From an uncultured Candidatus Saccharibacteria bacterium (GTDB taxonomy: Bacteria; Patescibacteriota; Minisyncoccia; Phycocordibacterales; PALSA-1337): a stretch of 64,000 nt of DNA. The notes below the pieces were generated by a model. The model had not been told where the DNA came from. It did not search any database and saw only the letters and a list, made by a program, of their open reading frames with translations. The stretch is from contig CAYMGJ010000001.1 of assembly GCA_964389975.1 (NCBI GenBank), positions 22,240-86,239 on the forward strand. The letters run 5' to 3'. The position numbers and the translations under genes were made by a program. Position 1 is the stretch's first letter, and each line of letters begins with the position of its first letter. Below, one piece after another: positions 1 to 24,147 of the stretch.

Positions 1-227
1 ATGCGGGTAGATTATTTGTTTATTATAGCCCCAAATTAAATACTTGTATCTCTGGCTATCAGCTAGATGTATTAAATTTTGAAATAGACGACGATAGAAG
101 TTCTATAAAAAATATTCTTACAGGTGAGACTCTCTTTAATTTCGATAATTACAATGAATATTTAGAAAAGATTGAGGAGCTTACTCGACCATCAATTTTT
201 ATGATTGATAAATATTTAAATGATTAA
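1..227 (+). CDS. hypothetical protein, 3' fragment (5' end outside window)
   Basis: Open frame from window edge (frame 3) to TAA at 225-227; no recognisable motif. Confidence 0.25.
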   Translation, partial: AGRLFVYYSPKLNTCISGYQLDVLNFEIDDDRSSIKNILTGETLFNFDNYNEYLEKIEELTRPSIFMIDKYLND

Positions 228-444
228 TAAAATACTCTTCCAAGCTAAAAGAAATAAAATTGTACTTCTTGCGATACTAGTTGTAATAAGTTTTTATTGG
301 TATTCTCTAAGACCATATTTAATAGTTAAGAAATGCATTCAGTTAGCTAATGACAAGGTCGACAATATTCGTGGTGATCAGACGGATGTAAGATATTTTT
401 TTGGAAATGTGAAAAACAAAATGGCATATCTAATTAACAAGTAA
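220..444 (+). CDS. small hypothetical membrane protein (74 aa, one hydrophobic helix)
   Basis: ORF track; hydrophobic stretch IVLLAILVVISFYWY. Confidence 0.3.
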   Translation: MINKILFQAKRNKIVLLAILVVISFYWYSLRPYLIVKKCIQLANDKVDNIRGDQTDVRYFFGNVKNKMAYLINK

Positions 445-479
445 AATGACTCGCCGGATTAGATTATGCAGAAACAGAT

Positions 480-824
480 ATGATTAATAGGGTTATTGAT
501 TTAGCTAAGCGAGCAAAAGAAATATATATGAAGCGATCCCCGGAAGAAAAGAGATTACTTCTGAGTCATATTTTTTCGAACTCGATGCTAAAAGATCAGA
601 AGGTGGCTTATACACTTACTAAAAATGTAGAGTGTATTACTCAGAGGGTCCAAGAGAAATTAGATAGTGAAAAAGTCTTAGAACCGAACAAGTGTGGCCC
701 TACTAAAGGGCAAAAGGACTCTTTTGAGTCCATCTGTTCTGCTATGTTCTCCTTGCAGGACAATTTTCAGACAATATTTAAGATATGGTTATGTGTAATT
801 TATGCAAGACCTCGTCTATATTAA
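480..824 (+). CDS. hypothetical protein (114 aa)
   Basis: ORF track; no recognisable motif. Confidence 0.3.
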   Translation: MINRVIDLAKRAKEIYMKRSPEEKRLLLSHIFSNSMLKDQKVAYTLTKNVECITQRVQEKLDSEKVLEPNKCGPTKGQKDSFESICSAMFSLQDNFQTIFKIWLCVIYARPRLY

Positions 825-856
825 AATTCGTCATTATCTATGATAATATATAATCT

Positions 857-1552
857 ATGAAGGATCTTATTCATAAGAATTTTTTTTTGATCGAGGATCT
901 TTCTTTTGATATTCTATACTCCCTACTTAGAAGGATGTTGTGCCTACCAATTAGATTTCTATGGATAAAAAACGTTGTCGGCTTTGATAAAATTCCTAAA
1001 AAGGGTGGGGTTATACTAGCAATGAATCATCAAAGCTACTTTGATTTTCTTTGTTTAGCTGCCGTGTCTCCTAGAAATATACACTTCCTTGCTGCTGAAA
1101 AATTTTTCGAGCACTGGTTGTGGAGGTATCTCATGAAGGTAACAAAACAGGTTAGGGTTAATAGATTTGAAACTGATAAAAAGGAGATGCATAATCTTGT
1201 TCATGATCACTTAGAACAGAAAAGGGTGATTGGAATTTTTCCTGAGGGGACAAGATCACCGCACGAACATGAAATGTTAAAAGCTTTTACTGGTGTTGCT
1301 CAGTATGGACTTTTAAAAAAAGTTCCAATTATCCCCATCGGTATAAAGGGGACATTTTCTGTTATGTCTAAATATGATAGAAGGCCTCATCTAGTAAAAA
1401 GAGTAGAGATAATTATCGGGGATCCTATACATTTTCTTGAATATCACAAAAGAAATGATTTGACCCATGTTGATTATAATGCCGTTACTCACAAGGTAAT
1501 GAAAGAAATATCAATTCTTTCTGGAAAATCTTATCCACATAAACATGATTAA
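857..1552 (+). CDS. plsC: 1-acyl-sn-glycerol-3-phosphate acyltransferase family (PlsC-like)
   Basis: Acyltransferase HX4D motif (NHQSYFD) and FPEGTRS motif in translation. Confidence 0.75.
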   Translation: MKDLIHKNFFLIEDLSFDILYSLLRRMLCLPIRFLWIKNVVGFDKIPKKGGVILAMNHQSYFDFLCLAAVSPRNIHFLAAEKFFEHWLWRYLMKVTKQVRVNRFETDKKEMHNLVHDHLEQKRVIGIFPEGTRSPHEHEMLKAFTGVAQYGLLKKVPIIPIGIKGTFSVMSKYDRRPHLVKRVEIIIGDPIHFLEYHKRNDLTHVDYNAVTHKVMKEISILSGKSYPHKHD

Positions 1553-2255
1553 ATATAAAAAAGTTGCTTTTTTGGATTTTGATGGAACTTTGATTAATGG
1601 TCAAAGTCAGAGATATTTAATTAGATATTTTTTTAAGAAAGACATTATTAGTTTTTTTAGATATTTCGTAGTATTGATTTGGTTTTTATTTTTTAAATTT
1701 TTAAATTTCAAAGATACAAAGGGAATATTGGAATTTGCAGTTTCTGGAATTTCTGGAAAAAATAAGGATTACATCTCTCAAGTTTTTGATAATTTTTTTA
1801 ATTCTGAATGTAAGTGTTTAATATATAGGAATAGTAAAAATTTAGTTAGAATCTTGAAACAGAAAGGTTTTTATGTCATCCTTTTTTCAAGCGCAATTGA
1901 TGATCTGGTTAACAGAGCGTCTATTTTTCTTGAGTGCAATGAACATATATCAACTAAACTAGAAGTAAAAAATAATTGTTATACAGGTAGAATTGATGGA
2001 GATGTTTTGTATGGTAAAAATAAGACAAAGGTATTTCTTGATTATATTTATAAAAATAAAATTGATCTTAACTATACATATGCATTTGCAGATCATTTTT
2101 CTGATCTCAATTTATTATTAAAGGTTGGACACCCCATCCCGACTAACCCTTCTAGACAACTGTGGAAATATGCGAATAAAAATAACTGGCCCGTGTTATA
2201 CTTAGATAATAATGAATCTTTTCAGTATTTCGAGTCTAATATTGTGTCTGAGTAG
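1545..2255 (+). CDS. HAD-superfamily hydrolase (HAD-IB/phosphoserine-phosphatase-like)
   Basis: N-terminal DxDGT motif (VAFLDFDGTLING); HAD-like organisation. Confidence 0.65.
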   Translation: MIKYKKVAFLDFDGTLINGQSQRYLIRYFFKKDIISFFRYFVVLIWFLFFKFLNFKDTKGILEFAVSGISGKNKDYISQVFDNFFNSECKCLIYRNSKNLVRILKQKGFYVILFSSAIDDLVNRASIFLECNEHISTKLEVKNNCYTGRIDGDVLYGKNKTKVFLDYIYKNKIDLNYTYAFADHFSDLNLLLKVGHPIPTNPSRQLWKYANKNNWPVLYLDNNESFQYFESNIVSE

Positions 2256-3810
2256 TATTGCGTTCAGTTTTATTATCTATAGAACAGACCGAACAAATAA
2301 AATAAATAAATCATGGTTTTATTCATGCATTTCCTTTTCCCTGTGGGCACTTGGGTTGACCGGTGTGACTTTGTCTAAAATGGAAAGTTCAGCGATTTTT
2401 TGGCAGTATTTATTGGATGTGTCAGCAATATTTCTTCCTTTCTTCTATCTTGTCTTTATTTTTAATCTCTTGAAGTTAAAAAAGATATCTATAATCTATC
2501 TTTTTGCATTAATTGCATCCGGACTTGCTTTGTTCAGTTTTACTCCGCTATTTAAACACGGGGTAACAGTACTCTATGGTTTTTATTGGATTAAACCAGG
2601 TGAATATTATATAGTTTTCCCAGCATATTTTTTATCAGTTGCTGTAATAACTCTGGGGTTATTAATAAGGCAATATTTTATATATAAAAAAGATAGCTTA
2701 TTAAGATCTCAAATTAGGAATACTCTAATAGCAGGAATTATTGGCTATACTGGTGGGCTTACAAATTTTTTTCCACAATTATTTAGTATCTATCCCTATG
2801 GGAATTATCTAGTTATTCTTTATATAGTTTTCATGGTTTATGGGGTTTTAAAATATAAACTTCTTAGTACCAAGGTCATTTCTGCACAAATATTCTCTAC
2901 TGCTCTTATATTGGTATCTCTGTTTAATCTTTTAAAATCAGAGCAAATTAATGATTGGTTGTTAAATTTTTTGATCCTCCTTCTTATTTCAGTCTTCAGT
3001 TATTTTTTGATAAATAGTGTGAATGAAGAAGTAAGAGCCCGCGAAAAAATAGAAAAACTAGCAACTGATCTCAAGGTGGCAAATACACGTTTAGTCGAAC
3101 TTGATAAACAAAAATCTGAGTTCGTATCATTTGCAACCCATCAGCTTAGAGCTCCTCTTACTGCAATGAAGGGATACACCTCTCTTATGCTTGAAAACGA
3201 AATGGGGACTCTTTCAGCTGAGGTTCGCACTGCTATTTCTCGCATTTATGAATCAGCCAAGACTCTAACTTCTATAGTTGATGACTATCTCAATATTTCT
3301 CGTATTGAGCTCGGTACTATGAAATACGCTTTCTCGGTTCTCGATCTAAAAGTTATGGTTTCTAATGTTATCGGAGAACTTAAGCCTAATATTGAGAAAA
3401 GCGGTCTTGTTACATCTTTTTCAACATCTCCATCAGGAGAATCTGAACGATTTATGGTCCGAGCCGATCAAGACAAACTTAAACAGGTTATAGCTAATCT
3501 CATTGATAATTCAATTAAATACACTCCTCAAGGTTCTCTTAACATATCTCTCATTAAGGATACGGATAAGAGAATAATTACATTTAAGATAAAGGATACA
3601 GGGGTAGGTATCGCCCCTGAGGTTATGCCGAAACTTTTCTCAAAATTTGTTCGTGCTGATAATGCTAATAAGCAAAATATCTATGGAACAGGTCTTGGAC
3701 TCTTTGTGGCAAAAGAGATAGTACTGGCTCATCATGGAAAGATCTGGGCTGAGTCTGAGGGGGATGGAAAGGGTAGTTGTTTCTATGTTGAGTTAGAAAT
3801 GTCAGTATAG
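2212..3810 (+). CDS. membrane sensor histidine kinase (multi-TM N-terminus, HisKA + HATPase_c)
   Basis: H-box FVSFATHQLRAPLTAMKGY; G-box GTGLGLFVAKEIV; multiple N-terminal hydrophobic helices. Confidence 0.85.
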   Translation: MNLFSISSLILCLSSIAFSFIIYRTDRTNKINKSWFYSCISFSLWALGLTGVTLSKMESSAIFWQYLLDVSAIFLPFFYLVFIFNLLKLKKISIIYLFALIASGLALFSFTPLFKHGVTVLYGFYWIKPGEYYIVFPAYFLSVAVITLGLLIRQYFIYKKDSLLRSQIRNTLIAGIIGYTGGLTNFFPQLFSIYPYGNYLVILYIVFMVYGVLKYKLLSTKVISAQIFSTALILVSLFNLLKSEQINDWLLNFLILLLISVFSYFLINSVNEEVRAREKIEKLATDLKVANTRLVELDKQKSEFVSFATHQLRAPLTAMKGYTSLMLENEMGTLSAEVRTAISRIYESAKTLTSIVDDYLNISRIELGTMKYAFSVLDLKVMVSNVIGELKPNIEKSGLVTSFSTSPSGESERFMVRADQDKLKQVIANLIDNSIKYTPQGSLNISLIKDTDKRIITFKIKDTGVGIAPEVMPKLFSKFVRADNANKQNIYGTGLGLFVAKEIVLAHHGKIWAESEGDGKGSCFYVELEMSV

Positions 3811-16905: not shown

Positions 16906-16978
16906 GGGCCCGTAGCTCAGTTGGTAGAGCAATCGCTTTGCAAGCGAAAGGTCAGGAGTTCGAATCTCCTCGGGTCCA
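16906..16978 (+). tRNA. tRNA-Ala (anticodon UGC)
   Basis: Cloverleaf: GGGCCCG acceptor stem with G3:U70, D-arm GCUCAGUUGGUAGAGC, anticodon loop UUUGCAA, T-arm GGAGUUCGAAUCUCC; CCA not encoded. Confidence 0.9.
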
Positions 16979-17078
16979 CAACTATTGATTACAATATATA
17001 ATTGTGGTATAAAATATCACAGTTCTTTTATATTATCTACAGGATAGTCATAGCCAAAAGATCTTAATGAATTGAGGT

Positions 17079-17654
17079 TTGTTGGCTATGACTACCCGCA
17101 CTTTGTGGATGTCCTCTAGTATAAACAAGCGAAAACCAAAAGGAAAAAACGCTATGTACTGTAAACAAACAGGAAAACTGCTTGCGCGTGTGGCAGAGTC
17201 TATGCCTCACATGCATTCAGATGCGATGCGACAATGGATCGATAATCCATTAGGACTACAAAGAGTTCTCAAGAGGGCTTTAAATCCTTCTGCGATCATC
17301 CGACCGGCAAATGTGTCGGTTTGGAAAACCAGTTTAGCAAAGGGTGACTTTGCTGCAGTGACGCCCGCACAGCTTGGCTTCGCAAATGGGAATGTGACGG
17401 CTGGAGAGATTTGCGATCGAGCGATTGAAATCAGCTTAGAATATTGCACTAGAGGATCTTTTAATCAGTTGCCAGTACAGGAAGTGAACAACGGTTTGAT
17501 CGTGCTGTTCGAGCCCGTGAGTCCATACGCAAGTCATTGTGGTTATATCGAGTTTTACAAAGGTGAAGAAAACCGCTCGATTAGCGGTCAGTTGAATCTA
17601 AACGAAACTCGGTCTGGCAAAGTTCGCTGGCTCTTCCTCATACCCCCAAAGTAA
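17079..17654 (+). CDS. hypothetical protein (island ORF 1; start may be internal ATG MYCKQ)
   Basis: ORF track; first ORF 3' of tRNA-Ala; terminator immediately downstream. Confidence 0.4.
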   Translation: MLAMTTRTLWMSSSINKRKPKGKNAMYCKQTGKLLARVAESMPHMHSDAMRQWIDNPLGLQRVLKRALNPSAIIRPANVSVWKTSLAKGDFAAVTPAQLGFANGNVTAGEICDRAIEISLEYCTRGSFNQLPVQEVNNGLIVLFEPVSPYASHCGYIEFYKGEENRSISGQLNLNETRSGKVRWLFLIPPK

Positions 17655-17692
17655 AGTTAAATGCTTTTACGATATTTGGTGACCAAATCCTA

Positions 17693-17728
17693 CCCCAAGC
17701 AAGTTCGTTGCTTGGGGTTTTGTGTTTT
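17693..17728 (+). terminator. rho-independent terminator
   Basis: ccccaagcaagttcgttgcttgggg hairpin followed by ttttgtgtttt. Confidence 0.65.
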
Positions 17729-17827
17729 CATATCACCACTCAAATACTTCAAAATATTTCTCAAAATTCCGCATTTGTAAGGGTGAAATGCGAACAACCG
17801 CAGAGTCACATCTGTGGTTTGTCTTTT

Positions 17828-17924
17828 TTATTTCAAAATTTCTTTTAAATACCACACCCCTTCACAAACTGGTTTTAGAAAAGTTAAACTGAGATCCATC
17901 CACAGAAATAGCCCTATAAATAGG
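17828..17924. repeat. 97-bp direct repeat, copy 1 (island intergenic repeat)
   Basis: ttatttcaaaatttcttttaaataccacacc...atccacagaaatagccct; ~96% identical to 19441-19538. Confidence 0.85.
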
Positions 17925-18097
17925 CAAGAGTTGAAACTAACAAGTGATTGCCGGGTTTTTTGAATCTAGGAGAGGTTCGAATTGAAATATTTACAATTAT
18001 TATAATTTATGTTATTATCTAGTCAGAACCGCACCTTGAAAGATGTCGGTTTTTTTCAATTTTCCACAACAATCAACAATCCAAATAGGAGGACCTT

Positions 18098-19270
18098 ATG
18101 TCTCAAAAAAATCAAAACTTTGGAGAGCCTATAGACCGGCTTCTTCGTAGTTACGAAGTTACTATGCAGTTTCTCTCTTTCGTGATTGAAATCTTCACAA
18201 AAGGACAGACAGGTCAGTTTGCTGATCCTTTCTGGAATCGGATCTTAAAAGGTCCAGTCACACATTGGCAAAGTTTTCGAAATTCTTTGCTTAAAGTGCA
18301 CACTGATGGATTTGACGTTGAAAAATACGTTGGACCAACACACAATAGTCATCCTCAAAGTATGAAGGAGTTCGAGTTCACCCAACCACGCTTGGTGGCA
18401 ATGCGTGTTGCTGAGTGGACAAAATCCTCTCGCAGAGTTTACCGTGTGCCAAAGGACCTTCAGTTGCTTTTGGCAGCCACAAGCCTTCAAGGTATCGACT
18501 GGTCAATGATCAAATGGCCTTTCGACTCGTTACTCATCTCTCTCGAGGAGCCACTGGTTTTTGGAGGGAAGACAATCGATGCGATCTTGATTGCCAAAGA
18601 AATTGTTCATGGTCATGAAGTCATGGCTATTGAAACTATTGCTACCGACTTGCCAACTATGGAGTCGGTGTTCATTGGCGATCAGCGTTCGAGGATTAAA
18701 AAAGCAATCCAAAAGGGCGACAAGGTTTCACTGGATTATGCAAAAGAAAAACTTGCATCCGCCGTCAAGAACCGTATGAATGGAGGTGGCAAAATATGGC
18801 TGACAAAAAAAGCCTGTTTTGAACCCGGAGGATTCGCTTCGAAATTTGAAGAACTTGATCTCGGAAAGGCAGATGAAACCTCGGCTTCAAAGGTGATCTT
18901 CAGGATCGTCTTTGGGTTGATGCTCTATCTACAGTCTCGTCCAACAAAGGAACTCATTCCAAAAGGATGGGAGCTGTCAACGTTTGAACGGCGAGAGGGT
19001 CCGAGTCGTGTAATCAGACTTGCATCGGAGGTTTGTGTGGTAAAAAGCATCTACTCACTGACTAGTGCAGAACGAGAGGTGCTTGAGCCAATTCTTCGTG
19101 GTGGTTATGTGGAGATTGCTCCGCATCACCGTGAAGGTCACTGGCGTCGTCCTCCCGGAAAAGGAGATGACCCTAATCATCCAAAGACTGTGTGGGTCTG
19201 TCCGACAATCGTGAGGCGTGACAAACTTGCTGATGGAGGATTGCCTCTTGGAAGCACTGAAGTCGTCTGA
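18098..19270 (+). CDS. hypothetical protein (390 aa; island ORF 2), GC-rich
   Basis: AGGAGG RBS 6 nt before ATG; no recognisable motif; ~50% GC against ~37% flanks. Confidence 0.5.
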   Translation: MSQKNQNFGEPIDRLLRSYEVTMQFLSFVIEIFTKGQTGQFADPFWNRILKGPVTHWQSFRNSLLKVHTDGFDVEKYVGPTHNSHPQSMKEFEFTQPRLVAMRVAEWTKSSRRVYRVPKDLQLLLAATSLQGIDWSMIKWPFDSLLISLEEPLVFGGKTIDAILIAKEIVHGHEVMAIETIATDLPTMESVFIGDQRSRIKKAIQKGDKVSLDYAKEKLASAVKNRMNGGGKIWLTKKACFEPGGFASKFEELDLGKADETSASKVIFRIVFGLMLYLQSRPTKELIPKGWELSTFERREGPSRVIRLASEVCVVKSIYSLTSAEREVLEPILRGGYVEIAPHHREGHWRRPPGKGDDPNHPKTVWVCPTIVRRDKLADGGLPLGSTEVV

Positions 19271-19293
19271 CATCATTCAGTCACAATATTAAC

Positions 19294-19334
19294 AAGCCCC
19301 TTCCATGTTCAATCCGTGGTTGAGGGCTTTTTTA
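19294..19334 (+). terminator. rho-independent terminator
   Basis: aagcccc...gagggcttttttag hairpin + T-run immediately after ORF. Confidence 0.5.
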
Positions 19335-19440
19335 GTTCACGAAAATAAACAAGACCAGATATTGAAACCCCTCGACTGCTTCACAAGCTCCCCGTTACCC
19401 TTGACGAGGTCATTCAGCAACTTGGCGATCTTGTTAATTA

Positions 19441-19538
19441 TTATTTCAAAATTTCTTTTAAATACCACACCACTTCACAAACTGGTTTTAGAAAAGTTAA
19501 ACTGAGATCTATCCACAGAAATAGCCCTAGAAATAAGG
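19441..19538. repeat. 97/98-bp direct repeat, copy 2
   Basis: Near-identical to 17828-17924 (3 substitutions, 1 indel). Confidence 0.85.
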
Positions 19539-19561
19539 GTTATTTTGATATTTAACAAGTA

Positions 19562-19591
19562 TTGACAAATAGATATTTAGTATGCTATAAT
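19562..19591 (+). promoter_or_regulatory. sigma-70-type consensus promoter (TTGACA-18-TATAAT)
   Basis: Exact TTGACA at 19562-19567 and TATAAT at 19586-19591. Confidence 0.55.
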
Positions 19592-19805
19592 ATAAACAAT
19601 CAAGTTAGATCATTGAAAATTAAATAGTGAAAGTTAGAAGATTGGCTTGTTCCAGTTGGAGTAGTATCTTGCATACCTAACCTCTTGTGGGGATTAGGTG
19701 TTCAAGAAAACTGCTCCGACAGAAAACAATGGAGCGGGTCAGTCACATGGGTGGGATCATCCCGCATTGTGAGCTAGTCCGCGAGACTGCAGAAAGCCTG
19801 CATAT
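19592..19805 (+). promoter_or_regulatory. ~210-nt GC-rich structured 5' leader (candidate cis-regulatory RNA)
   Basis: Several local hairpins (cctaa..ttagg; gctcc..ggagc; tggga..tccca) and a long-range ggctt/aagcc pairing that overlaps the region just upstream of ATG 19806. Confidence 0.3.
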
Positions 19806-20696
19806 ATGAAAACAATCGAAAATAATACCGTTAAGCTCGTTAGTCACTTCCAACGTGGTGGTTGGGTCAGTCAATGGGATGGACAAAAGTTTGTCAAAGT
19901 CGCCAGTGCCGCGGAGAATACCTGGTATGACGATGGTGACGACTCAAAAGAAGTCGCCCTTCCCGAAGGTTTCAAGGGTGCGGTCGGTGAGTTCCATGGC
20001 GTGTCATCATCGGTCGCATTGGTTGGATTCACTGATGAGGAGCTCAATGCTCCCTCACCAGTTCAAGGTTGGGACAATGTTGGTGTTGGATTTCGTGCTG
20101 AAAGGTGCGAACTCATCAGGAACCTTGGGGATTACCTCAAGGCAATTGCCAACAACTCGTTCGTTGCCATTCCTGAAAAGGGTGACGTACACACAGTCTC
20201 CGGCAATCGCCTCGTCGAACTTCCGTTCGATTGGGGTGATCAAGCAGCAAATCACTATGCTATCATTTCGCCGAAAGGTGAAATTCTAAGCGAAGTGAGT
20301 GGCTGTGGCGATCAAGCCCCTTACCCGCTCAAGGCGGATATGACAAAGGACTGGGAGTTCTCCTCGTTGTTTGAGGACATGAATCGTAAAAACGAGCGTA
20401 ACAACGCCGCGTTCAAGGCGGGGTGGTCCGACAAGTGGCAGGAAGTCGCGAATCATCTTCGCTCTTGCTATAAGATGGGTCAAAACCCCCTGCCAACACT
20501 TCGCAAGAAGTATACTGGCAAATGGGTTTACCATCAGGCAGGAACATTGCCGGAAGATAGTGAAGTCGGGGAAGTCCGCTTCACCGAACTTCCCCAACGG
20601 GAGAACGAAACAGCGACAGCGCCGGACGGACACTCCAGTTTCTGGGGCAACGTTTGGAATCGCTGGCAGGTGAGTTACATCCCTGCAACGCTTTGA
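19806..20696 (+). CDS. hypothetical protein (296 aa; island ORF 3), GC-rich
   Basis: ORF track; ~52% GC; no recognisable motif. Confidence 0.5.
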   Translation: MKTIENNTVKLVSHFQRGGWVSQWDGQKFVKVASAAENTWYDDGDDSKEVALPEGFKGAVGEFHGVSSSVALVGFTDEELNAPSPVQGWDNVGVGFRAERCELIRNLGDYLKAIANNSFVAIPEKGDVHTVSGNRLVELPFDWGDQAANHYAIISPKGEILSEVSGCGDQAPYPLKADMTKDWEFSSLFEDMNRKNERNNAAFKAGWSDKWQEVANHLRSCYKMGQNPLPTLRKKYTGKWVYHQAGTLPEDSEVGEVRFTELPQRENETATAPDGHSSFWGNVWNRWQVSYIPATL

Positions 20697-20719
20697 AGGG
20701 CGTTCAACAAAATCTTCAA

Positions 20720-20752
20720 CCCTCGAGCAATTTGGCTCGGGGGTTTTATTAT
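20720..20752 (+). terminator. rho-independent terminator
   Basis: ccctcgagc-aatttg-gctcggggg hairpin followed by ttttatt. Confidence 0.6.
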
Positions 20753-20824
20753 TCCAATTTTTTAAATATCACACTCCTCCACATCCTTAGTAAGGGCCAT
20801 TTAGCTAGAATTCAAGTATAGATA

Positions 20825-20853
20825 TTGACAAATCTATTATATAGTAGTACTAT
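20825..20853 (+). promoter_or_regulatory. candidate sigma-70 promoter (TTGACA-17-TACTAT), shares ATATTGACAAAT with 19558-19571
   Basis: TTGACA at 20825-20830; -10-like TACTAT 17 nt downstream. Confidence 0.4.
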
Positions 20854-20910
20854 CAAGATCGGGTTCTTGGATAAAACCGAGGACAGATTGAATTAAAAAT
20901 AATACATGAA

Positions 20911-21324
20911 GTGAGAACTCAAACTAATTCTTTCTGCCTCAAAACAGAAAGGAATAGTGTGTGTGATCACCAGTCGCTAGTAGGTTACGAAGAGTATGCA
21001 TTCTTTGGTAGGAATTGTCTGTCCTGCCTAAACCCGGGGGAGACCTCACCCTACGATGCAGCTGTTAAATATGCTGCAAAGTTTCCGGGTGCTTGTGTGA
21101 TTGAGGAGAGGGATGGCTTTCGGATCTTTGGACCGAGTAAAATCAGTCTCTCATCTCTATCACAAGAGGATGTGGAGTTACTCGAGAGATTTGCAAGTGG
21201 GTCTGCTTTACCTCCTTTGTCAGAACATGACAGAAAGGTGCTTACAGATTTTCTCAGGACACCTCTTGAGGATCATATCGAAAGATGGAAAAAGAACATT
21301 CCCTGGAGGAATGAAGAAACGTAA
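20911..21324 (+). CDS. hypothetical protein (island ORF 4; true start uncertain, possibly GTG near 20958)
   Basis: ORF track; Cys-containing N-terminus; terminator downstream. Confidence 0.35.
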   Translation: MRTQTNSFCLKTERNSVCDHQSLVGYEEYAFFGRNCLSCLNPGETSPYDAAVKYAAKFPGACVIEERDGFRIFGPSKISLSSLSQEDVELLERFASGSALPPLSEHDRKVLTDFLRTPLEDHIERWKKNIPWRNEET

Positions 21325-21331
21325 CTAAATT

Positions 21332-21364
21332 GGCCGTCACTCTGTGTGGCGGTCTCTTTTTATT
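21332..21364 (+). terminator. rho-independent terminator followed by degenerate copy of island repeat motif (tttatttcaaaattttt)
   Basis: ccgtcac-tct-gtggcgg hairpin then tctcttttta. Confidence 0.4.
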
Positions 21365-21410
21365 TCAAAATTTTTAAAATGTGAATATCTCTGTTATATT
21401 GATTTAATAT

Positions 21411-22049
21411 ATGAAAAACTTAAAAAGTAGTTTTGTAGTCCAGATAATAATCACAATGATTATTATGGTTTTAATAGGTGGAGGAATATATTATGTAGTG
21501 GAATATAGATATTCAGAACCATCTACAGTAATGGAAGGTTTTTCTAATAATTTGATACCAACTAAGAAAAATATTGAAGTAGACACAAAGCAGGTCGTTG
21601 ATTCAGGTTCAAATACCTCATTGACTAAGATTTATAAAGATTCTAAATATTTCTTCACTGTAAATTACCCAAATACATGGATCGCCTCTAAGGGAGAGGA
21701 ATCAGATATGGGAGGTTTCCATTATACTCATTTTGGAGTTTCAAATATTTACGAAAAGCCATTTGTGTGGATTAGAGTCTATCCTAGACAGACCTCTCTG
21801 GATAACTTCCTAAGATATTATAAAGGATTATCTGGAATTTGGTCTGATACTGTTGTAGATGGAATTCCTGCTAAAAAACTTAATAACATAAATCAAGATA
21901 ATCAGGGAATAATACTGATTGCATTTGTTAAGGATGGATACGGTTACGACATAGCTTCTACAGCATTTGGGCAATATGGATCTGTAGCAAATGAGATGGC
22001 TCTAACCTTTAAATTTGCCTCATCAACAAATACAACCTCAGACGAATAA
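21411..22049 (+). CDS. hypothetical membrane-anchored protein (N-terminal TM, 212 aa)
   Basis: IIITMIIMVLIGGGIYYVV hydrophobic anchor; returns to low-GC composition. Confidence 0.45.
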   Translation: MKNLKSSFVVQIIITMIIMVLIGGGIYYVVEYRYSEPSTVMEGFSNNLIPTKKNIEVDTKQVVDSGSNTSLTKIYKDSKYFFTVNYPNTWIASKGEESDMGGFHYTHFGVSNIYEKPFVWIRVYPRQTSLDNFLRYYKGLSGIWSDTVVDGIPAKKLNNINQDNQGIILIAFVKDGYGYDIASTAFGQYGSVANEMALTFKFASSTNTTSDE

Positions 22050-23772: not shown

Positions 23773-23817
23773 GGGATTGACAGAGGAAGGTTCTCCCCAC
23801 TATACTTATCTCCAGTT

Positions 23818-24147
23818 ATGCTCGTCGTTAGATTGATGTGTTTGATGTATATCGGCGGTATCGCTGGTGAAGATCGGATTTCGTCTCGTTATGACGATAT
23901 CCACGCATGGGTATTTGCTCAAAGCGATGTCTATCGCTCGTATGGACCTCCACCAGATTCACTGTTTCTTAGAGTACCAGTCGAACAGGTTTTTCGTGTC
24001 ATGCATCCAGATGCATGTCCAGTTCGTTCGACACCCGTCATCGTTCCGTTTCAAGGGATTACACTCCCTCATCAATCATCTCAACAGATGATTCCGTATC
24101 GTTACCGCAGGTGTATCGCCCAAGACTGGGTGCCTCCTCCGGTATGA
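23818..24147 (+). CDS. hypothetical protein (109 aa) in GC-shifted segment; coding status uncertain
   Basis: Promoter-like TTGACA-17-TATACT at 23780-23812, strong terminator at 24188-24218, but no RBS and an overlapping second-frame ORF. Confidence 0.25.
   Translation: MLVVRLMCLMYIGGIAGEDRISSRYDDIHAWVFAQSDVYRSYGPPPDSLFLRVPVEQVFRVMHPDACPVRSTPVIVPFQGITLPHQSSQQMIPYRYRRCIAQDWVPPPV

Follow-up and report, generated by a model that had tools for sequence, protein, structure and literature searches.

In autoregulatory leaders such as the S15 pseudoknot and that of T4 gene 32, a structured operator, often a pseudoknot, adjoins the start codon of a gene and is bound by the product of that gene, and such operators usually mimic the primary RNA target of the protein. 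The preQ1-I/II, SAM-II/V, and fluoride riboswitches are built around a compact pseudoknot with invariant loop nucleotides, which is placed in the 5′ untranslated region (UTR) near the initiation region. For E. coli suhB, boxA- and Nus-dependent translational repression has been described and compared with phage lambda nutL-N (Baniulyte et al. 2017, PMC5725501). Here, we describe an RNA in the leader of a gene for an uncharacterized protein (ORF3), found in a stretch of 64,000 nucleotides (nt) of DNA (the window) from an uncultured Candidatus Saccharibacteria bacterium (contig CAYMGJ010000001.1). The core of this RNA is an H-type pseudoknot, formed between the UCACN loop of a hairpin (Ha) and a downstream N′GUGA, followed by a hairpin of 4 base pairs (bp) with a CGCGA loop and by a further hairpin that abuts the start codon. 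The core represents a conserved RNA family of Patescibacteria that is absent from Rfam, and it is attached almost exclusively to genes of one uncharacterized protein family. The leader RNA is probably a new gene-control element; its kind is known (a structured operator or riboswitch-like RNA), while the family appears to be new.

As at suhB, a boxA-like element lies in the 5′ UTR, near the start codon, of many genes of this family, which are often associated with genes linked to ribosomal RNA (rRNA) or the ribosome; repression of suhB is translational. Unlike at suhB, the universal part is the pseudoknot with two hairpins, the boxA-like element is missing in one class of leaders, and the protein is unrelated to SuhB. 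The arrangement also resembles lambda nutL-N (PMC5725501), where a strong promoter, boxA with a hairpin, and a structured leader precede the gene, and where the product binds that RNA. There is, however, no similarity to boxB or N, the locus is not a phage, and antitermination is here purely conjectural. As in autoregulatory protein leaders, there is one RNA family per protein family, but unlike for operators of the S15 and T4 gene 32 type, no primary RNA target or mimicry was found for this leader among the E. coli and partial Patescibacteria rRNAs compared. From the preQ1, SAM-II, and fluoride classes, the RNA differs by having no match in Rfam, by a pseudoknot that does not include the initiation region, and by being linked to one protein family rather than a pathway.

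Patescibacteria account for a large share of bacterial diversity, and to our knowledge almost nothing is known about gene regulation in these organisms. A review of the group mentions riboswitches only as possible future genetic tools (PMC11665869), and literature searches brought up no relevant account of a leader RNA in Patescibacteria. An RNA constrained throughout the phylum, together with a protein family that is nameless in databases, offers a concrete, small RNA–protein or RNA–ligand pair.

Copies of the core were collected in two scans. A metagenome scan with GTGAGYTARTCCGCGAGAYTG yielded 29 loci, and a genome scan with a relaxed pattern of the core gave matches in metagenome-assembled genomes (MAGs) of Candidatus Saccharibacteria, Paceibacteria, and the Parcubacteria group. 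The relaxed pattern also gave 8 further matches in high-GC Actinomycetota, Nitrospira, and Rhizobiales, which lacked any other feature of the family and whose number was near that estimated for chance. This resulted in 35 distinct core copies, with all real matches coming from Patescibacteria MAGs or metagenomes. The loci fetched for comparison (72 besides the window) are denoted by L-numbers, and the downstream proteins by P-numbers. A covariance model (R1), built from 13 of the 35 copies, detected exactly one copy per related locus, and in the window the following parts were assigned:

19728 to 19804, + strand: core motif of about 75 nt; the sole match of covariance model R1 in the window (41.4 bits, E = 6e-10)
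19739 to 19750, + strand: hairpin Ha, UCA (19739-41) paired with UGG (19748-50) around the loop GUCACA; the stem covaries across 33 sequences
19743 to 19747, + strand: 5′ strand of the pseudoknot, UCACA in the Ha loop; pairs with 19768-19772
19768 to 19772, + strand: 3′ strand of the pseudoknot, UGUGA; its pairing crosses Ha, which makes the pseudoknot H-type
19751 to 19765, + strand: variable hairpin Hb, GUGGGA-UCA-UCCCGC, within loop 3 of the pseudoknot
19776 to 19788, + strand: hairpin H2, AGUC-CGCGA-GACU; the CGCGA loop is invariant and the second pair covaries
19789 to 19801, + strand: hairpin H3, GCAG-AAAGC-CUGC; ends 4 nt before the AUG

The core keeps a fixed position with respect to promoter and ATG: in nearly all copies it ends 12-17 nt before an ATG, and H3 ends 1-8 nt before it. 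The variable part is Hb, which is present, absent (as in the class of leaders we refer to as minimal), or enlarged (as in L024), so that GUCAC and GUGAG are separated by anything from 18 to 68 nt. At every homologous locus reached through the protein, the upstream 150-300 nt could be aligned with the window, promoter included. In L008, 164 nt of the leader are 86% identical to the window, while the protein is only 45% identical. The most divergent homolog (P0015, at L069) is preceded by a core that is reduced to a remnant, AAUCCGUAAAUACAGGUGAAAGUCCU (compare AAUCCGCGAGAUUGUGGAAAGUCCA); at that locus, a strong promoter directly after a transfer RNA (tRNA) gene is followed by a leader of about 375 nt (L069 118-524).

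Scans of the window with Rfam 15 at the gathering score gave no match except a tRNA. With E up to 10, the only match to the leader was MEG8_3, which at 13.9 bits is spurious, and with E up to 5, nothing was found over the motif in the short-form loci. A first-pass annotation of the window, made by eye, had likewise recognized no riboswitch class in the leader, in agreement with these covariance-model scans.

Comparison of homologous leaders, which the same annotation had suggested as a check, revealed a conserved and covarying structure. Automatic alignments (MAFFT and covariance model) mis-registered some rows, among them that of the window, which was misplaced because GGGUCAGUCAC contains GUCA twice. 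For this reason, base pairs were counted on a hand-registered alignment (A9), from which the variable insert was removed and in which the register of Ha was chosen by hand. In A9, 90.4% of the cells in the core were paired, against 32-39% when partners were slid, and none of 500 shuffles reached the observed covariation score. The pairs varied as follows:

Ha inner pair 1: AU 9, UA 7, CG 5, GC 4, UG 4
Ha inner pair 2: CG 20, GC 8, UA 4
Ha inner pair 3: CG 23, GC 5, AU 2
Pseudoknot fifth pair: CG 12, AU 7, UA 4, unpaired 10
H2 second pair: GC 22, AU 11, never unpaired; this position was free in both collection scans
H3: UA to CG and GC to AU swaps

Among the stem variants of H3 were UGUGG/CCACA, UGCAG/CUGCA, and GGAG/CUCC, the last of which came from L071. 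Ha is not accounted for by the choice of the best among four registers: its mean was 4.91 of 6 pairs, compared with 3.42 for shuffled sequences and 4.09 when 3′ strands were swapped between sequences, and neither null reached 4.91 in 2000 trials. Four pseudoknot pairs are invariant, apart from one C-G to U-G change in the fourth (the last C of GUCAC). A 21-nt stretch of the core was fixed by the search pattern, however, which makes three of these four pairs, as well as three pairs of H2, uninformative. The fourth pseudoknot pair was free in the metagenome scan and was nearly invariant there. As the search patterns fixed three of its pairs, support for the pseudoknot consists of one covarying pair together with invariance.

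These substitutions also bear on whether the conserved stretch could be a coding sequence, either a leader peptide or an N-terminal extension of ORF3. Of the three frames through the core, two are closed by UGA and UAG/UAA, and the third is open. Gene callers extended five proteins into this frame (P0002, P0007, P0008, P0009, and P0012, from loci L007, L008, and L011), so that their public calls start inside the leader RNA, and several read ...CELVRETAESLH M... through it. In the window, a small upstream open reading frame (uORF) runs into the start of ORF3:

19729 to 19809, + strand: uORF of 26 codons, MERVSHMGGIIPHCELVRETAESLHI; its TGA overlaps the ATG of ORF3 as ATGA; not conserved

We nevertheless regard a coding origin as highly improbable. 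In most of the 35 copies, the open frame has no ATG, and a stop codon interrupts it 4-25 nt before the core begins. With respect to the main ATG, the frame may be fused, overlapping, or separate, and insert lengths differ by non-multiples of three. Moreover, the double change from G-C to A-U in H2 would amount to two coordinated amino-acid changes. A short open reading frame or other coding signal, which the first-pass annotation had considered as a competing explanation, does not account for the region, as the leader contains no conserved upstream reading frame. The N-termini reading ...CELVRETAESLHM... are probably mis-started calls, with the conserved start being the ATG just after H3, and the annotation of several public MAGs, in which the reading frame is wrongly extended into the RNA, can be corrected.

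The sequence could also act at the level of DNA, as a mobile element with inverted repeats, as an integration site, or as a protein-binding operator. Long inverted repeats are indeed present in the region, and the gene lies in a tRNA-adjoining island with direct repeats of 98 nt. This possibility seems just as slight, since the fold is strand-specific through G-U pairs, the position relative to promoter and ATG is fixed, each locus has one copy, and the island repeats were not found at other loci. The minimum free energy (MFE) of the + strand leader is -78.4 kcal/mol (z = -6.1, with none of 200 shuffles as good), compared with -57.4 kcal/mol (z = -2.8) for its reverse complement. The + strand folds better because of its many G-U pairs, which points to an RNA made from that strand. 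IS110 bridge RNA, IscB/TnpB omega RNA, retron noncoding RNA, and type III toxin-antitoxin RNA were considered as well and rejected, as the adjacent protein, which would have to carry the catalytic domains of such a family, has no match in Pfam, PHROG, NCBIfam, or PADLOC. For a ToxI-type RNA of type III toxin-antitoxin systems, tandem repeats were also lacking in the leader, and there were no matches in viral contigs.

The second line of evidence is the gene that follows the core:

19806 to 20696, + strand: ORF3, 296 amino acids (aa); long form of the NPLPxLRKxFPxxxW family (NPL family), with an N-terminal beta-rich part and a C-terminal conserved domain (about residues 188-296)

About 33 of the 35 core copies precede a member of this family. 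The proteins encoded downstream range from 135 to about 310 aa and form a single BLAST cluster; 30 of the 35 unique products carry [NSEQ]P[LIF]..[LI][RQ] within the consensus Y..G.NPLPxLRKxFPxxxW, and two more carry variants of it. The NPLPxLRKxFPxxxW patch is the only invariant one in the protein, and it is basic and aromatic. When loci were reached starting from the protein, 7 out of 8 had the core, and the remaining one had a decayed version. As the short (135-190 aa) and long (about 300 aa) forms share the RNA, the RNA appears to follow the NPL domain. The RNA family thus lies specifically upstream of one gene family, as would be expected of an operator.

The protein family itself has no name in databases. 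In an index of 5.8 billion proteins, ORF3 has 15 relatives, none with a Pfam domain or an informative name, and a full HMMER scan of 1.84 billion representatives gave only 85 sequences at E <= 1e-3. No match to the NPL family was found in Pfam, PHROGs, NCBIfam, PADLOC, or the sequences of the PDB, and a word-index search of proteins using only the C-terminal domain came back empty. Paralogs of ORF3 elsewhere in its island were rejected as well, as a hidden Markov model of the NPL domain matched only ORF3 within the window.

Upstream and downstream, the gene is delimited by its own transcription signals:

19562 to 19567, + strand: -35 hexamer TTGACA; conserved in L001, L005, L007, L008, and L011
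19583 to 19591, + strand: extended -10 element TGcTATAAT, with TG at 19583-84 and TATAAT at 19586-91, after an 18-nt spacer from the -35
20718 to 20745, + strand: intrinsic-terminator-like hairpin, an 11-bp stem with 7 G-C pairs followed by a T run; ends the one-gene unit

An exact TTGACA-18-TATAAT promoter had been reported about 215 nt before the ATG at 19806. This promoter was confirmed: its -10 ends 214 nt upstream of the ORF3 ATG, and the same promoter is found at homologous loci, where TGCTATAAT around the -10 is kept. In its perfect form, TTGACA-N16-18-TATAAT occurs once in the 64-kb window, against a chance expectation of 0.08, and was seen in 8 of 100 shuffles. Transcription would be expected to start near 19598, which gives a predicted leader of about 208 nt (19598-19805). 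ORF3 forms a unit with its own promoter and its own terminator. Within the leader (19598-19805), no intrinsic terminator was predicted, as would be needed for a transcription attenuator.

A shorter leader before ORF4 had been put forward as a relative of this one. The promoters are indeed related, as a near-consensus TTGACA-17-TACTAT (window 20816-20853) before ORF4 shares the block ATTGACAAAT with the ORF3 promoter, but the relationship does not extend to the RNA. No RNA motif lies downstream of that promoter, and a second copy before ORF4 or elsewhere in the window was ruled out with the covariance model. Another near-consensus promoter, TTGACA-18-TATACT (window 23777-23806), precedes a small open reading frame (23818-24147), again with no RNA motif downstream.

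We tentatively read the leader as a translational operator to which the protein encoded downstream binds, possibly together with Nus factors. In this model, the NPLPxLRKxFPxxxW patch of the protein would bind the pseudoknot/CGCGA core, and binding would set the accessibility of the start region beside the last hairpin, so that control would be exerted at translation initiation. The result would be negative feedback on the output of the near-consensus promoter. We prefer the encoded protein as the effector because the RNA accompanies the NPL domain in short and long forms alike and in unrelated neighborhoods, because the sole invariant patch of the protein is basic and aromatic, and because autoregulated RNA binders are usually arranged in this way, with an operator behind a near-consensus promoter. 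If this is correct, the NPL protein is an RNA binder, which may connect to the rRNA transcription machinery.

Several observations speak against such an operator. Between classes of the phylum, the core shows almost no variation, whereas protein identity falls to 20-30%; an invariant core with a drifting protein is more typical of a small-molecule aptamer or of a mimic of a universal RNA, and is the strongest argument for a riboswitch. No significant mimicry of, or complementarity to, E. coli 16S/23S or partial Patescibacteria rRNAs was found, within an rRNA coverage that is incomplete. A few copies of the core precede other genes, namely an unrelated 163-aa open reading frame in L012 and a membrane-like one of 136 aa in L037, and in the lineage of L025, L032, and L036 the core precedes a 47-aa open reading frame that is followed by 23S rRNA. 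H3 has been lost in L037 and in the latter lineage. A boxA-like element is absent from the minimal-class leaders. Finally, the GGAG of H3 cannot be assumed to be a ribosome-binding site, as Shine-Dalgarno (SD)-like motifs are not enriched in these genomes, and H3 of the window has no GGAG at all.

A new class of riboswitch is the foremost alternative, and we consider it possible but doubtful. The pseudoknot and the CGCGA hairpin would then be a metabolite or ion aptamer, with the last hairpin, and in the window a further helix (P0, below), as the expression platform. Compact H-type pseudoknots of this kind are known from the preQ1, SAM-II, and fluoride classes. The leader shows a conserved and covarying structure in a 5′ UTR, and near-invariant junction and loop nucleotides beside covarying stems, with an optional insertion hairpin, follow the usual pattern of aptamers. 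The RNA is also far more conserved than the protein, a few copies stand before unrelated genes, and the minimal-class unit lies beside glyA, thyA, folA, and tmk. In contrast, about 33 of the 35 copies precede a single family of small, soluble proteins without an enzyme or transporter signature, rather than the genes of a coherent pathway. There is no consistent metabolic theme in the neighborhoods, no ligand can be proposed, and no Rfam family matches even at E = 10. The architecture had initially been described as that of a riboswitch or other cis-acting RNA switch. The broader part of that description stands, given a conserved, covarying 5′ UTR RNA that ends at the start codon, but the more specific term is not supported, as the RNA serves one poorly conserved family that does not resemble enzymes, and no set of pathway genes. 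An operator bound by a protein fits the data no less well. Should the RNA prove to be a riboswitch, it would represent a new class.

Leaders of the long form contain additional structure upstream of the core, part of which competes with it:

19655 to 19720, + strand: long 5′ hairpin of 66 nt and 27 pairs, with the apex loop UUGU at 19685-88; in long-form leaders only
19640 to 19654, + strand: 5′ strand of helix P0; its partner in the MFE structure is 19730-19744
19730 to 19744, + strand: 3′ strand of helix P0; shares nucleotides with the 5′ strand of Ha and with GUC in the pseudoknot loop

In an alignment of 11 sequences, 92.5% of the cells of the long 5′ hairpin were paired, against 37-53% with the partner slid, and eight pairs were changed on both sides. 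The P0 duplex has a predicted free energy of -20.7 kcal/mol (z = -5.4) and produces the 105-nt extended hairpin of the MFE structure. It is equally strong in L071, L056, and L028, where compensating changes are found, weaker in L001, L008, and L011, and absent in L005, L007, L044, and L060. Because the Ha 5′ strand and GUC in the pseudoknot loop are sequestered in P0, this helix and the conserved core fold are mutually exclusive. P0 would be complete before the 3′ parts of the core are transcribed, and the pair of exclusive folds suggests a switch in the sub-clade of the window only. Such exclusive folds fit a riboswitch, for which P0 versus Ha and the pseudoknot could form the expression platform in this sub-clade; H3 abuts the AUG, and use of SD sequences in these genomes is doubtful. 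Under the operator model, P0 would close the long 5′ hairpin and hide the 5′ strand of Ha, so that the core would fold only when stabilized.

Most of the local pairings listed in the first-pass annotation could be placed within this fold. Its cctaa/ttagg and tggga/tccca hairpins are present and conserved, the former inside the 66-nt 5′ hairpin. Pairing of gctcc with ggagc is possible, but GCUCC forms the 3′ strand of the covarying long hairpin with GGAGU (19659-63), and the pairing with ggagc shows no covariation as aligned. The proposed long-range bracket of ggctt and aagcc is not supported: ggctt (19645-49) instead belongs to helix P0, where its partner is 19736-40, and the last hairpin has AAAGC as its loop. 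The base pairs on which an occlusion of the ribosome-binding region had been argued thus differ from the conserved ones. The leader had also been called GC-rich, and its GC content is indeed higher than that of the window (39.6%), but only modestly so, at 43.8% for 19598-19805 and 49.7% for 19655-19805.

Near the 5′ end of many leaders, a short element was found that may correspond to boxA:

19610 to 19621, + strand: boxA-like element UCAUUGAAAAUU, close to the leader 5′ end and within a block that does not vary among long forms; its TTGAAA is shared by all of six long-form leaders, and the element resembles boxA-like sequences of Patescibacteria 23S leaders

The 23S leaders contain GAACUUUGAAAAUU in L040 and L036 and UAAUUGAAAAUU in L038, which look like the boxA of rRNA leaders, and the name boxA for UCAUUGAAAAUU is meant in this provisional sense. 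The boxA consensus GYTCTTTAANA is gamma-proteobacterial (derived by Baniulyte et al. 2017, PMC5725501), and leaders were scored against a variant of it, GYTCTTTRANA. L017 and L041 carry GCUCUUUGAGA, which scores 10/10, and five further leaders score 9/10. A score of at least 9/10 was reached in 20% of the leaders, compared with 1.2% of control windows. Other leaders carry GGUCUUUGACA or GUUCUUUUACA, and the spacing to the GUCAC downstream is constant at 17-20 nt. As minimal-class leaders are without the element, boxA is accessory to the RNA rather than part of its core. For the operator model, the presence of a boxA-like element at many leader 5′ ends would suggest that NusB/NusE take part, as at E. 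coli suhB and lambda nutL-N.

The element could also be read as part of a nut-like site, in which boxA and the RNA recruit NusB/NusE and the NPL protein onto RNA polymerase, with the protein as a lineage-specific factor for antitermination or rRNA transcription, like lambda N or SuhB. We think this unlikely. In keeping with it, the boxA-like element stands at a fixed distance upstream of Ha and, in L040, resembles the 23S-leader sequence of the same genome, and suhB and lambda nutL-N provide precedents (PMC5725501). In several loci, the unit also lies near 23S rRNA, tRNA genes, or the end of the spc cluster. In L036, L037, L038, and L040/L058, 23S rRNA follows the unit at a distance of 400-600 nt and on the same strand; in four Saccharibacteria-type contigs (L005, L007, L028, and L044, inverted in one), the unit comes after map, where the spc ribosomal-protein cluster ends; and in L008, L017, and L069, it directly follows a tRNA gene. 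However, the minimal class has no boxA-like element, in L040 the gene and 23S are set apart by a terminator and a distinct promoter, and copies of the core were not found in rRNA leaders by covariance-model scan. In addition, a match to CUUUGA or UUGAAAA is weak evidence in AT-rich genomes, and the link to translation genes may merely mirror their abundance in genomes of about 1 Mb. In this reading, the NPL protein, as a Patescibacteria-specific partner of the Nus/RNA-polymerase complex, would also repress its own translation and modify transcription of adjacent rRNA and tRNA genes, such as downstream 23S rRNA. If true, this would add a so far unrecognized player to rRNA synthesis in a phylum whose genomes are minimal.

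The leader might also be a constitutive structure without an effector, acting as a 5′ stabilizer against decay, as a processing signal, or in presenting the start codon where SD sequences are little used. In the window, SD-like motifs precede 13% of long ORFs, compared with 18% of random windows, and no enrichment was found in related loci either. The 3′ end of 16S rRNA in L021 (9476-9855, - strand) reads ...GGAUCAUUUAUUUA instead of ...GGAUCACCUCCUUA, so that the anti-SD sequence CCUCC seems to be missing there. This lack of SD enrichment and of CCUCC in L021, together with the strong promoter and stable hairpins, is what one would expect of a constitutive leader. Still, the flanks outside the fixed stretch (GUCAC and the H3 region) are conserved and the CGCGA loop is specific, which argues for specific recognition. 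P0 suggests regulation, and restriction to one gene family would go unexplained. A leader without an effector is therefore improbable as well.

The neighbors of the unit differ among lineages. In the window, they are chromosomal (uvrC, ddl, tRNA-Ala, zwf, and ychF, at about 40% GC). A phage origin of the window was rejected, as a megablast search against phages was empty and uvrC, ddl, zwf, and ychF are chromosomal genes; viral contigs and viral structures gave no matches. ORF3 itself lies in a run of unannotatable ORFs (17079-22049), whose left edge is marked by a tRNA gene:

16906 to 16979: tRNA-Ala(UGC) gene

Within this island, a direct repeat of 98 nt (17825-17922 and 19438-19535, 96% identical) brackets ORF2, between the terminator of an island ORF and the next promoter. 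Partial copies at 20760-20783 and 21357-21373, after ORF3 and ORF4, consist of its first part. The 98-nt repeat was absent from the 72 other fetched loci. As the repeat and its shorter copies separate the ORFs, the island resembles a row of cassettes that share one type of junction.

In the minimal class, the unit is located between a divergent PaaX-like regulator gene and glyA, with thyA, folA, and tmk alongside. In these loci (L012, L013, L016, L018, L024, and L029), a palindrome, ATACACTAAGT...ACTTAGTGTAT, overlaps the -35 of the unit, about 100-200 nt upstream of the core. Together with the divergent PaaX-like gene, it suggests an added layer of transcriptional control in this class.

Among further observations, L033 contains a sub-threshold match to a type III hammerhead ribozyme (1316-1370, + strand; 41.3 bits against a gathering score of 48.5, E = 4e-6) about 700 nt downstream of its NPL gene. 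In L058, the 23S rRNA gene immediately downstream of the leader-gene unit contains a group I intron (920-1156, - strand; 92.5 bits). The first 3000 nt of the window (1-3000) have about 30% GC, compared with about 40% elsewhere in the window.

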